A stretch of 20,187 bases of DNA from a virus: positions 80,820-101,006 of the IMG/VR virus record IMGVR_UViG_3300014348_000112, one strand, 5' to 3'. The translations under genes were made by a program, and so were the position numbers. The stretch's first letter is position 1. Each line of letters begins with the position of its first letter. This document shows, in pieces, positions 1-17,321 of the stretch. The notes under the pieces were generated by a model. It did no database searches. It was not told the origin of the DNA and worked only from the letters and a program-made list of their open reading frames with translations.

Positions 1-2684
1 GAAACCCGCACCTGGTGGGGGGATTTCCAGCCTAGGTCAATGGGTTCGCCTATTGCGTTCCAAATTCGGTCGTTGTACTCCCAGTCTATCTCTCTCAGGC
101 CATTCTTTTGGGTAAAGACCTTGTAGTCGAAACTCTCCAGAACCACCTCGCCCGTGGCTCCCTTAACCAAAGTAAAGCGCGCGCTGCCGGGATAGAAGTC
201 CGGGTTGAAGTCCGGCATCTCAGGGTCGGTCCACGTCACCATAATGTCAACGGTCGTTCTGGGGAACTGACCCTCGCGGGTGATCTCTCGCTCAGTGATG
301 GCCATGCTGACGTTGGTCGTAAGCCCCGGCCGGCTCATCAGACGCATGAAGGTGTCGGCGTCGGTGAACTCATCCAGCCGCGCGGGCGCGCCGGCGATCT
401 GCGGCTGCCCACCCTCTGGTCGCCACTGCCCGCCGCGCTCGTCGCCGGCCGGCCAACGAGGCTGCGAGGGGTCGTAAGTTTTTTCGATGCCGAACAGCTC
501 AGCAAAGCGCCGGCGGTCGTCCTCTCTGGCGCCGCTGCCCACAACCCTGGGGCGGTAGCCCTGTTGAGCTGCGGCGGTGATCTGGTAGGGGCCGAAGACC
601 CGTACCATCATCCCGTCGTCGCGCTCCATCAGGCTGGTCTCTTCAGCTTTTAGCCCGCGCCCGCCCAGGTCCCGGAACTTACGGTTGACCTGCTGGATGT
701 CATTGCTGGCGCGCGCCGTAACCTTTTCGTGGGCCTCCTCCAGGTTCAGTTGCCAGGCGTTCTGCTCGGCGACCAACTGGTTGCGCAACTTGTTGACTTG
801 GCGGGTGTCCATCCACTGGTCGTCACGGTAGCCCAGCGCCTGCCAGAGGTGCTCAGAGCCGTAGGTGGCAATCTTGCCGTCGGCGTGCTCCACGAAATAG
901 ACGTGAACGATCTTGCGTCCACAGGTGGCGCACTTGCCGGCGTTGTCCCAGTCGCTGACCTGTTTGCTGTAGTAGCCCTCGTGTTCGTTGTAGGCCAGGT
1001 CCTCGACCGTCTTGTGTTCGTAGGCGACCAGTTTGCTGCCGTTGGGGCCGGTAAAGGGCCGGTTCGACCGCATGTAGAGCTTGGCGTTGCGCGGCATCAC
1101 CGTGCCGCCGCCGTCCTCGGACCACTGACCGCCCTCTGGCTGCCCCGCCGGCACGCGCGGCTGGTCGGGGTTAAACTTCTTCTCTCCCATCGCGAACACG
1201 CGCCGGCTGGACCACAGCGTCACCACGTCGCCAGCGCCGTTGATGGCCACGAAGTCCTCGCCGGGTTCCAGCCGGGCGCGCCGGGCCTTCTCCGCCACGG
1301 CCTGGTCAACGGCCGGCGGGGTGGCCTGCTCGGCGGCCGGCGGGGTGGCCTGCTCAGCCGGCGGCGGCTCCTCGCGCTCGACCACCTCCGGCGCCTCTTC
1401 GTCGGTGTTGGCGTTGCCGTGGACGGTGGTCATGTTGGTCTCGGCCAGCCACTCCGGCGCCATCTCCAGCTCGACCAGCCAGCGCCGGGCCTCGTCGGGC
1501 GAAATGAGCTGCCCGCCGGCCAGGGTGGCGATGTTGGCGATGACCTTCTCCCGGATCGTCTCGCGCAGCAGGTCGTCTTCCGAGTCCTTCTGGTCGAAGA
1601 CGAACTCCAGCCCCTCCGGCAGGATGTCCCAGTTGACCATGCGCTCGACGCTGGACAGCGCGCGCCCAAAGCCCTTGCCCTTGGCCTTCTGGGCCTGCAC
1701 CTCGGCCTCGGCCTTGGTGGCGCCGGTCTGCGAGGCCGGCCAGAACTCCCGCACATCCACGCCAAAGTCGAGGGCCAGCGTGTAGACGTACAGCTCGATG
1801 GTGGTCTTCTTGTCGAAGCCCTCCGGCAGGCTGGAGAAGCTGGTCAGGTTGACGCCAATGGGGTTGATGGGTGACGACTGCGCCGCCAGCCACAGCACCC
1901 CCTTGAACGTCGTCTGCTGCTTGTCCTCTCGGTGGGCTTTGTACAGCTCAAAGGCCGACCTGACCTCGCTCTGCGTCATGCCGGTGATGGCGGCGATGCC
2001 GGGCAGCGGCATGTCGGACAGGCGCTCCTCTTCGTAGTTGTACAGCGCCATCAGCACCTGGGCGACCTTCAGCGCGCGGCTGGTGGCGCAGAAGCCCAGG
2101 CCGGCCTTGCTCTCGTCCGGCGTCGGCATGTCCACGATGCGGGTGTAGTCGCTCGGCTCCAGAGGGATGCGCTTGCCGCTAACCGCGCCGGTGATCAGGC
2201 GGGGATAGTAGGCCGCCGGCGTCTTGGGCGACGCGAGCAGTTGCATCGTGCCGGCATCCAGGTTGTAGACGCCCAGCACTGGCCCATTCTTGCCGTGCCG
2301 GCCCAGTTCGACAAAGCCGCCCTGGTCGGCCTGCCAGTAGTCCTGGAGCAGGCGGTCGAGGAAGAAGCTCCAGCCGGCGCCGGCGTCAGCCTCGGCCAGT
2401 ATCTCCTGGTAGCGGGTGACGCGGTTGCGGCCGCCGGTGATTTGCCAGTCCAGCGAGACGGCCTTGCTGGTCATGCTGGACAGCGCGCCCACCAGGATCG
2501 GCTCCTGGCGGGCAAACTCGCGCAGCTTGTCCACCCGGCTCGGATTGCCCCATTCTGGTATCGTGTTCTCGGACGTGAAGCGGTCGAAGAAGGTCCACAA
2601 ATACGCAGACGCGTCGGTCATCTGCCTGGCGTCGAAGCGGGGTTGTACCGAGAGTTTGCCGTTGGTGGCGGTCGTGGTTGGCAT
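1..2684 (-). CDS. Phage portal protein (HK97-like) with long C-terminal extension; 3' end outside window (>=894 aa)
   Basis: Manual translation from ATG at 2684 (MPTTTATNGKLSVQPRF...) stays open to base 1. The first ~430 aa show portal-like segments (GLGFCATSRAL...LYNYEEE...PGI; TLALDFGVDVREFW; VERMVNWDILPEGLEFVF; GQLISPDEARRWL), followed by a Pro/Glu linker and extra domains. Confidence 0.8.
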   Translation of the reverse strand, partial: MPTTTATNGKLSVQPRFDARQMTDASAYLWTFFDRFTSENTIPEWGNPSRVDKLREFARQEPILVGALSSMTSKAVSLDWQITGGRNRVTRYQEILAEADAGAGWSFFLDRLLQDYWQADQGGFVELGRHGKNGPVLGVYNLDAGTMQLLASPKTPAAYYPRLITGAVSGKRIPLEPSDYTRIVDMPTPDESKAGLGFCATSRALKVAQVLMALYNYEEERLSDMPLPGIAAITGMTQSEVRSAFELYKAHREDKQQTTFKGVLWLAAQSSPINPIGVNLTSFSSLPEGFDKKTTIELYVYTLALDFGVDVREFWPASQTGATKAEAEVQAQKAKGKGFGRALSSVERMVNWDILPEGLEFVFDQKDSEDDLLRETIREKVIANIATLAGGQLISPDEARRWLVELEMAPEWLAETNMTTVHGNANTDEEAPEVVEREEPPPAEQATPPAAEQATPPAVDQAVAEKARRARLEPGEDFVAINGAGDVVTLWSSRRVFAMGEKKFNPDQPRVPAGQPEGGQWSEDGGGTVMPRNAKLYMRSNRPFTGPNGSKLVAYEHKTVEDLAYNEHEGYYSKQVSDWDNAGKCATCGRKIVHVYFVEHADGKIATYGSEHLWQALGYRDDQWMDTRQVNKLRNQLVAEQNAWQLNLEEAHEKVTARASNDIQQVNRKFRDLGGRGLKAEETSLMERDDGMMVRVFGPYQITAAAQQGYRPRVVGSGAREDDRRRFAELFGIEKTYDPSQPRWPAGDERGGQWRPEGGQPQIAGAPARLDEFTDADTFMRLMSRPGLTTNVSMAITEREITREGQFPRTTVDIMVTWTDPEMPDFNPDFYPGSARFTLVKGATGEVVLESFDYKVFTQKNGLREIDWEYNDRIWNAIGEPIDLGWKSPHQVRV
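1310..1355 (-). repeat. 24-bp-period tandem repeat encoding EQATPPA(A/V) linker in portal
   Basis: cggccggcggggtggcctgctc at 1310-1331 and 1334-1355. Confidence 0.85.
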
Positions 2685-2700
2685 GGCCGGCCCGAATACG

Positions 2701-2736
2701 AAAAACGCCCCGCGAGAAGAAGGCTCTCGCGGGGCG
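2701..2736 (-). terminator. Intrinsic terminator/attenuator in portal leader
   Basis: 12-bp perfect stem CGCCCCGCGAGA/TCTCGCGGGGCG with 7-nt loop, followed by TTTTT on the minus strand, 16 nt before the portal ATG. Confidence 0.8.
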
Positions 2737-2758
2737 CAGGGTTAGCGGTGGGTGTAGC

Positions 2759-2776
2759 GGCGCTCAAGGCGCTCAA
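2759..2776 (-). promoter_or_regulatory. TTGAGCGCC x2 tandem repeat in leader (candidate Com-family protein binding site)
   Basis: ggcgctcaa-ggcgctcaa on plus; lies between the promoter and the terminator. Confidence 0.55.
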
Positions 2777-2799
2777 CGTTGTTCGTCGGCTACTCAGCC

Positions 2800-2829
2800 A
2801 GTATAGCACGCGACAGGACGGGTTGTCAA
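2800..2829 (-). promoter_or_regulatory. Leftward sigma70-type promoter for portal operon
   Basis: TTGACA (2829-2824), 18 bp spacer, TGc-TATACT (2805-2800) extended -10. Confidence 0.75.
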
Positions 2830-2860: not shown

Positions 2861-2889
2861 TTGACAGATTTTGGTTATAGGTGTATAAT
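2861..2889 (+). promoter_or_regulatory. Early promoter P1
   Basis: TTGACA-17 bp-TATAAT consensus; related to promoters at 5034, 8839 and 11419. Confidence 0.9.
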
Positions 2890-5738: not shown

Positions 5739-5874
5739 GCCCGTGTAGCTCAAACGGCAGAGCAGCCACCAGCACTTACAGCCGGGCGATGATCCCTCCC
5801 GGACTAAGTAGAAGGCAAGCTGATCACTTGCTGGCTGAAATGGAAGGTTGGAAGTTCAAGTCCTCCCACGGGCA
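5739..5874 (+). ncRNA. tRNA-like RNA with ~60-nt structured insertion in the anticodon arm (136 nt)
   Basis: Acceptor GCCCGTG/CACGGGC+A, TA-GCTC-AAACGGCA-GAGC D arm, GGAAG-TTCAAGT-CCTCC T arm; no encoded CCA; anticodon not assignable. Confidence 0.65.
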
Positions 5875-17114: not shown

Positions 17115-17321
17115 TCACAGCATAAACCCTTTCCCGCTGGCCTCTGCCTTGGCCTCGACCTCGCACAGGTAGGCTTGCAGCTCAGCCACCAGCGCCAGGA
17201 CGCTCACCTGCTTGGGCCGGCCGCAGCGGGGACAAACGATGGTGATCGTCGCCCCGTCGCACTTGGCCAGCAGCTTGCCGCAGCCGTTGCCGGCGCTGTC
17301 CTGGCAGCGGATGTCGGACAC
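17115..17321 (-). CDS. com: Mu Com-like zinc-finger regulator (68 aa)
   Basis: DIRC.......CGKLLAK......I.CPRCG signature. Confidence 0.75.
   Translation of the reverse strand: MSDIRCQDSAGNGCGKLLAKCDGATITIVCPRCGRPKQVSVLALVAELQAYLCEVEAKAEASGKGFML

Follow-up and report, generated by a model that had tools for sequence, protein, structure and literature searches.

Background

In phage lambda, the constitutive late promoter PR' gives a short leader terminated at tR' (the 6S RNA), and the long late operon behind it is opened by the phage factor Q. Proteins of the BglG/LicT/SacY, HutP and GlpP type bind a nascent leader and stabilise an antiterminator hairpin that overlaps the terminator.

To our knowledge, the only function assigned to the phage protein Com over decades is to activate translation, either of mom or of a methyltransferase that replaces it. 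In phage Mu, Com activates translation of mom, and its motifs partly overlie an inhibitory hairpin that Com opens (PMC6483171); FluMu-type prophages carry Com-methyltransferase pairs (PMC3299994). SELEX with the Com zinc-finger domain returned the core GAG(N)2CC, the proteins behind the SELEX and EMSA experiments being those of H. sputorum and Mu (PMC6483171). Most of the selected RNAs held two motif copies arranged as NGAGNNCC(N)2-3GAGNNCCNN, with a 3-4-bp stem of variable sequence in which the loop-closing pair was always C-G (PMC6483171). Com recognises 5'-CC(N)2-3GAG-3' in the hairpin loop, a lone GAGNNCC half-site binds poorly in assays, and the authors draw an analogy to HIV Tat-TAR, with its promoter-proximal hairpin and CC(N)2-3GAG loop (PMC6483171).

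Here we analyse a 20,187-nucleotide stretch of viral DNA (the window; positions 80,820 to 101,006 of IMG/VR record IMGVR_UViG_3300014348_000112) in which a leader with Com-type motifs and a strong terminator precedes a portal gene and a Com-like protein is encoded. On balance, we favour a late-gene switch made of RNA and protein, in which the Com-like protein would bind the nascent leader, block folding of the terminator and open the late operon. The Com family would then probably switch on late genes in this phage, a role not previously described for Com; a literature search found no paper linking Com to antitermination.

The locus shares with Mu Com/mom and the FluMu pairs a small four-Cys zinc ribbon with the (I/V)RC...CPRC signature. 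As in Mu, the proposed target is a hairpin with a CC(N)2-3GAG loop, further motif copies overlap an adjacent inhibitory hairpin and, in relatives, com lies directly upstream of that target. It differs from Mu in that the inhibitory hairpin is an intrinsic terminator, the ATG lying unmasked 16 nt further on. No start-masking structure of a DNA-modification gene directly follows com, and the unit proposed to be controlled is a virion operon of ~49 kb rather than such a gene. In the window the proposed action in trans would bridge 14.4 kb, and the protein itself departs from Mu Com in a CX7C first knuckle and a TerL-like G-x-G-F-M-L tail. Promoter, short leader and long operon follow the layout of lambda PR'-tR', but no PF06530 or PF03589 match accompanies them, recognition is apparently of RNA and not of a promoter DNA site, and the effect is probably not processive but confined to a single terminator. 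A leader-bound protein would prevent the terminator, as in systems of the BglG type; here, however, there is no conserved alternative helix, the protein would occupy the 5' arm itself, and the folds are unrelated. Like Tat at TAR, a small trans-activator would restore elongation, whereas Tat-TAR is eukaryotic, recruits an elongation factor and has no homology to the present pair.

Results

A leader with an intrinsic terminator at the head of the virion operon

The window is part of contig C111, which lies within a 3.9-Mb assembly. The final 55 bases of C111 are the same as its first 55, so C111 is a circular element of ~101,006 bp; its G+C content is 64%, against 60% in the remaining assembly, and its phage genes include those for portal, MuF, terminase and amidase. 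In a GC3-based gene map, minus-strand genes run from 23,908 across the contig origin to ~76,138, and this ~49-kb virion operon (portal, head, tail) has a bidirectional terminator at its far end. An intrinsic-terminator scan found none inside the operon as strong as the one in the leader. The features of the locus are collected in Table 1.

Table 1 Features of the leader locus and their counterparts in related phages
Feature	Record	Coordinates	Strand	Details
5' part of portal-cargo fusion gene	window	3..2684	-	first gene of the ~49-kb leftward virion operon
Intrinsic terminator	window	2700..2737	-	14-bp stem, 5-nt loop, U5 tract
Site 2, GCGCCCC-GC-GAGAGCC	window	2722..2737	-	Com-like bipartite motif, one mismatch; terminator 5' arm and loop
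Structured leader 5' element	window	2754..2793	-	P1 (GUAGC/GCUAC) enclosing hairpins P2 and P3; RNAalifold
Site 1, GAGCGCC-UU-GAGCGCC	window	2759..2774	-	exact match to the Com SELEX consensus; forms P3
Late (portal) operon promoter, sigma-70-type	window	2800..2829	-	TTGACA 2829-2824, 18-nt spacer, TATACT 2805-2800
Divergent early promoter, perfect TTGACA-17-TATAAT	window	2861..2889	+	back-to-back with the leader promoter; drives early genes
Com-like zinc-ribbon gene, 68 aa	window	17115..17321	-	GTG start coupled to upstream stop; proposed trans-acting factor; leader strand, 14.4 kb upstream
Leader	L004	9829-9943		portal identity 83%; site 1 GAGCGCC-UCU-GAGCGCC
Leader	L005	9873-10000		portal identity 74%; site 1 GAGCGCA-UA-GAGCGCC
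Leader	L060	9891-10000		portal identity 68%; site 1 GAGGGCC-UU-GAGCCCC
Leader	L079	3708-3832		portal identity 67%; site 1 GAGCGCC-ACC-GAGCGCC
Leader	L063	9887-10000		portal identity 66%; site 1 GAGCGCC-GCC-GAGCGCC
com	L063	9631-9837	leader strand	overlaps TerL stop; own stop 20 nt before leader -35
com	L079	3227-3436	leader strand	one small ORF separates com from leader
com	L060	8919-9122	leader strand	0.9 kb upstream, after methyltransferase
com	L005	7789-7995	leader strand	2 kb upstream

The portal fusion gene encodes 1639 aa and extends past the window. Pfam and PHROG gave no match for the 1639-aa protein, and PDB sequence searches with it and with the Com-like protein gave no significant match. 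Residues 1-440, modelled with 38 homologues (AF2 mean pLDDT 73.6), have a portal fold: all 50 of the 50 Foldseek PDB matches listed for this 440-residue model are portal, neck or connector proteins (best E 4e-12). The start at ATG 2684 is backed by an MP...QPRF N-terminus that relatives keep.

The leader region is a 258-nt gap separating divergent genes, with the element on the minus strand. Between promoter and portal gene lie a GC-rich hairpin and a U-tract with no intervening ORF, a layout kept in six phages. A first-pass annotation, made from the sequence alone, had described here a near-consensus promoter, a leader of ~110 nt with two GAGCGCC repeats, and a strong terminator ending 16 nt before a portal ATG that has no clear SD; all of these were located. 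The promoter has 11 of 12 consensus matches and an extended -10 TG (2808-2807), and the 1-kb region holds two promoter-like sites against 0.1 expected. From the -10 hexamer to the ATG the leader measures 115 nt (2799-2685, minus strand), and its two repeats are exact (2776-2759). The terminator stem-loop (2737-2705; 10 of 14 pairs G-C, loop CCUUC, -28 kcal/mol) carries GAGAGCC across the top of its 5' arm and the loop (2728-2722), as described, and is followed by U5 and a C at 2700, from which 16 nt lead to the ATG; it is the strongest intrinsic terminator of the whole 101-kb phage. No SD precedes 2684, and the portal ATG is without one in all six leader-bearing phages; an SD-like motif is present in 13 of the 18 predicted genes of this operon arm.

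The divergent early promoter is kept in L004 and L005. Perfect TTGACA-17-TATAAT promoters occur eight times on the plus strand of the phage (window 2861-2889, 5034-5062 and 8839-8867; C111 46,149, 53,771, 60,835, 72,420 and 74,017) and share extended sequence, six of the eight having a common spacer TTTTGnTTTTGGGTG and a conserved initial transcribed box ACTCTTGACGGTAGAGA. Together they look like an early-promoter family.

Com-type sites in the leader

Exact copies of TTGAGCGCC occupy 2776-2768 and 2767-2759 (minus strand). Site 1 folds into P3, a GCGC/GCGC stem with the loop C-UU-GA and a C-G closing pair; a bipartite motif displayed in a CC(N)2-3GAG loop above a C-G closing pair is thus present at 2774-2759, and it is kept in five relatives. 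The first-pass link between GAGCGCC repeats and com homologues has a published basis in the SELEX consensus GAGNNCC(N)2-3GAGNNCC (PMC6483171).

Numerically the motif does not stand out. The 9-mer TTGAGCGCC, allowing up to one mismatch, has 13 matches in the window against 9.3 expected, which is no enrichment, and for the bipartite motif the phage has two occurrences where 1.1 are expected, the second of them inside a gene. A scan of the whole phage for this motif found no intergenic copy besides that of the leader, and the leader terminator is the only carrier of GAGNNCC among the intrinsic terminators found in the phage. As these counts are near expectation, the significance of the motif rests on position and conservation.

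Site 2 lies in the terminator itself. Across the six known leaders it reads G[A/C/U]GNNCC-GC-GAGNNCC, which makes the bipartite motif perfect in L060 and L079 and leaves it with a single mismatch in the remaining four; the CCGCGAG core (columns 87-93), which has the CC(N)2-3GAG form bound by Com, is invariant. Compensatory changes among the six leaders fall in the lower stem of the terminator; the upper stem has two one-sided changes, both to G-U and both on the 3' arm, which suggests that more than pairing constrains the sequence of the 5' arm. Com binding at site 2 is uncertain, since the half-site bound poorly in the published assays and four of the six leaders have a mismatch.

Conservation of the leader

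Relatives were reached through portal homologues, which gave five further distinct leaders and six in total. The five relatives keep TTGACA, a 17-18-nt spacer with TG, a TAnnnT -10, the 5' element, a U-tailed terminator and the SD-less ATG; across all six the -35 does not vary, and the -10 has A2 and T6 in 6/6. The repeats, on whose conservation the first-pass annotation had made its reading depend, are likewise kept in the five relatives, with a single exception at a specified position (L005). Within site 1, one of 10 specified columns varies, compared with five of seven free columns (Fisher p=0.03). L060 has a GG/CC compensatory change that leaves the P3 stem paired, a pattern that favours an RNA hairpin over direct-repeat DNA sites.

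For the six leaders RNAalifold gives four helices: P1 of 5 bp (GUAGC/GCUAC, with variants GCAGC/GCUGC and GUAAC/GUUAC), P2 and P3 of 4 bp each, and the terminator. Each leader folded singly also yields P3. In the alignment of six, 97.8% of cells are paired, compared with 27-48% once the pairing partners are shifted by 1-3 columns; changes on both sides are seen in six pairs and 0/500 shuffles match the covariation score, a result that, coming from six related sequences, is supportive and not proof. Identity to the leader of the window is 0.71-0.87 per aligned column, against 0.58-0.70 at portal third codon positions, so constraint acts on the non-coding leader.

Pattern scans for the leader in viral contigs and species genomes returned only chance matches in coding sequence, plus L067, a duplicate of L063. 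A covariance model run over all loci examined found no further copy and a weak match (18 bits) in L080. At the more distant portals L057, L058, L059 and L081 (54-62% identical), TerL lies directly upstream with no leader. In two other distant portal relatives (L066:6070-6275 and L080:1-126; 58-62% identical) the portal block is likewise preceded by promoter, structured leader and terminator, with no Com motif. The promoter-leader-terminator layout may be older than the Com site, or may use another factor.

Rfam, searched with the whole window at E<=1, gave no match to the leader, its only match being a tRNA-like one elsewhere (5739-5874, plus strand; 38.6 bits, E 4e-5). That match spans 136 nt and ARAGORN calls no tRNA there; it may be an interrupted tRNA or a tRNA-like RNA, in a large non-coding gap of the early region.

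A Com homologue that accompanies the leader

The Com-like zinc finger noticed at first pass at 17115-17321 is a real ORF (GC3 0.90), whose product hhalign aligns with Mu Com at 95.2% probability (E 2.6e-8, 52% identity over 31 columns). Equally, no mom-like gene follows it, as had been remarked: the next ORF encodes 153 aa without a family match and the one after it an NAD-dependent epimerase. Against PF10122 (Zn_ribbon_Com; gathering threshold 22.9 bits) the protein scores 20.2-20.3 bits as an ORF and 24 bits in a six-frame genome search, where it is the only match in the assembly, and eight of nine Com-like homologues match the family at E<0.01. The ribbon has the N-terminal (I/V)RC knuckle and the I-x-CPRC knuckle of the family, and its cysteines C6, C14, C30 and C33 are invariant in the nine homologues. 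The first zinc knuckle is CX7C and not CXXC, a 5-residue insertion relative to Mu Com. Because of this expanded knuckle, and of a score around the Pfam cut-off, the RNA specificity of the protein may differ from that of H. sputorum and Mu Com.

Co-occurrence of com with the leader, a check that the first-pass annotation had proposed, was seen by tblastn in 5/5 leader-bearing phages with enough sequence (L004, with 10 kb of upstream sequence only, is outside the count), a figure to be read as one homologous family of leaders and not as independent events. In four of the five phages com lies upstream of the leader on the same strand, at 0.03-2.2 kb. In the window com still belongs to the nearest same-strand upstream block, since the 12.7-kb early region in between is on the other strand. 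No gene other than com is a conserved neighbour of the leader, and in L063 com alone separates the leader from TerL.

The subfamily is small. tblastn with the Com-like protein against 50,697 cultured phage records gave no match, a word-indexed homologue search returned four close relatives only, on short contigs, and a set of 1.84 billion proteins contains 32 representatives at E<=1e-3. Not every more distant Com-like gene is accompanied by the motif. In L084, joined to L080, TerL is present together with a divergent com, leader, terminator and portal, with no GAGNNCC; L083, which has a distant Com-like protein, has an integrase after com and no motif. In L085 (1600-1700, minus strand), five to six tandem copies of TTGAGCACC or TTGAACACC lie 1.8 kb from a distant Com-like gene, on the opposite strand. 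Despite its likeness to TTGAGCGCC, this array cannot form the Com hairpin; it may represent DNA iterons or a multi-site RNA.

The C-terminal tails of Com and TerL are alike. A six-frame scan of the window phage, L005 and L063 for ORFs ending in G-x-G-F-[MVLI]-[LMI]-stop found only TerL and the Com-like gene (Com C-terminus at window 17115-17133, TerL C-terminus at C111 41574-41594). The same scan found only Com in L060 and L079 and only TerL in L081; in these three phages the TerL tail, where the scan found none, is a related A-I-G-F-V/M-L. Most of the more distant Com-like representatives retrieved have GGF(M/L)L as their last residues too. As the terminase tail docks on the portal in other phages, the ending common to both proteins may have a function. 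A complex prediction for two portal copies and Com, made without controls, scored 0.00, which has no bearing on binding either way. The 624-aa TerL of the window phage also has an insertion of ~350 nt (C111 42,518-42,870) near position 172 relative to the 485-aa TerL of L005, which could be an intein or an inserted domain.

Discussion

A candidate late-gene switch

The link between Com and the leader, first proposed by the first-pass annotation, is supported by three independent lines of evidence: the SELEX match of the motif, the variation of the leader (at N positions and as a compensatory change) and the co-occurrence of com in 5/5 phages. In the switch that we favour, the strong host-type promoter would fire continuously, and the transcript would end ~95-100 nt on, at the stable terminator before the portal gene. 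The terminated leader would display two Com-type motifs, site 1 in the P3 loop and site 2 as the 5' arm of the terminator. Once the Com-like protein had accumulated, it would bind nascent site 1 and site 2 before the 3' arm is synthesised. By direct occlusion, Com captured by the P3 loop would sit on the CCGCGAG of the emerging 5' arm; the terminator could then not nucleate, and RNA polymerase would enter the ~49-kb portal/head/tail operon. Mu offers a parallel, as Com there opens a hairpin adjacent to the site that it binds. No terminator inside the operon is of comparable strength, so a local block of a single hairpin would suffice without being processive. We infer Com binding, termination at 2701 and readthrough; we also infer the antitermination step, which fits the presence of a Com-like site 2 with invariant CCGCGAG in the terminator 5' arm.

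A different route had been noted at first pass, in which GAGCGCC pairs with the 3' arm of the terminator. This pairing is thermodynamically possible, because site 1 resembles the 5' arm. As an antiterminator mechanism it was rejected: the duplex is weak (-13 to -15 kcal/mol, about half the stability of the terminator) and shows no covariation. RNAalifold gives only P1-P3 and the terminator, with no conserved antiterminator helix, and the best upstream pairing with the 5' arm reaches -10 to -14 kcal/mol, where the terminator itself has -22 to -28. The Q-type families PF06530 and PF03589 had no match in the whole assembly, with control genomes responding.

Com might bind the leader and act otherwise, by activating portal translation, stabilising the mRNA or enforcing termination, or the ~95-nt leader might be a decoy that titrates Com. 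We consider this unlikely, if the most serious of the competing explanations. Mu Com is a translational activator and none of the six phages has an SD before its portal ATG, yet that ATG lies outside every conserved helix and it is the terminator arm, not the start codon, that the conserved motif overlaps. A decoy would profit from a short transcript with two Com-type sites; the phage, however, has no other intergenic bipartite site, and so no obvious target to compete for. Somewhat less probable still is control of the leader by a factor other than Com, such as a put-like cis RNA, a small riboswitch or a so far unrecognised factor of phage or host, the motif and the com linkage being coincidence or shared ancestry. 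Neither an Rfam match at E<=1 nor a Q-type family points to such a factor, the variation of the motif tracks the SELEX consensus position by position, and com is the one conserved neighbour; what keeps this explanation in play is that conservation extends beyond the Com motif, to P1, P2 and invariant loop bases, that L066 and L080 have the layout without the motif, and that the six leaders are one lineage.

We give very little credence to a reading in which the two TTGAGCGCC copies, spaced by one helical turn at ~+18 to +35, serve as direct-repeat DNA sites from which a bound regulator blocks RNA polymerase or loads it. The L060 copies (GAGGGCC, GAGCCCC) have changed complementarily, not in parallel, the spacer is 2 or 3 nt, and P1 covaries around the repeats. 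These observations speak against DNA sites; in favour of them are the 9-bp period of the repeats and the tandem TTGAGCACC/TTGAACACC array of L085, hairpin-incapable and on the strand opposite com.

If the antitermination switch exists, late genes would be controlled in a new way, by a very small, well-defined protein-RNA pair that differs from Q, N, put, late sigma factors and Ogr/Delta activators. With a 68-aa protein, a leader of ~100 nt and a consensus sigma-70 promoter, the system is compact and would be a candidate orthogonal regulatory part. It could also aid annotation, as many uncultured phages have small zinc ribbons by their terminase or portal genes that are called 'hypothetical' or 'Com'. 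A bolder extension, which we regard as improbable, is that Com-type zinc ribbons form a general, undescribed class of late-gene antiterminators that occupy the 5' arm of a terminator, and that portal or procapsid assembly could titrate Com via its TerL-like tail and so feed back on late transcription.

Other loci of the phage

At C111 52,989-53,300 (L002:11690-11958), four direct repeats of ~38 nt (GTTTCACCCACGCCTGTGCGGGTTGTCTAGACTGAGAG) lie after a strong minus-strand promoter, TTGACA-18-TGgTACAAT; their start-to-start spacings are 74, 74 and 64 nt, and they look like a mini CRISPR array. Directly 3' of the repeats (C111 51,448-52,725; L002:10149-11426, minus strand) is the gene for a 425-aa RRXRR+HNH protein (PF14239, 6e-75), an IscB-like or compact Cas9-like nuclease. 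Elsewhere, at C111 67,135-67,273, two face-to-face promoters overlap a common hairpin; downstream of the minus-strand promoter, TTGACA-17-TAGACT with TG, come first a terminator-like hairpin and next a 133-aa HTH repressor-like gene (66,805-67,206). This locus may be an antisense or attenuated switch of an immunity region.
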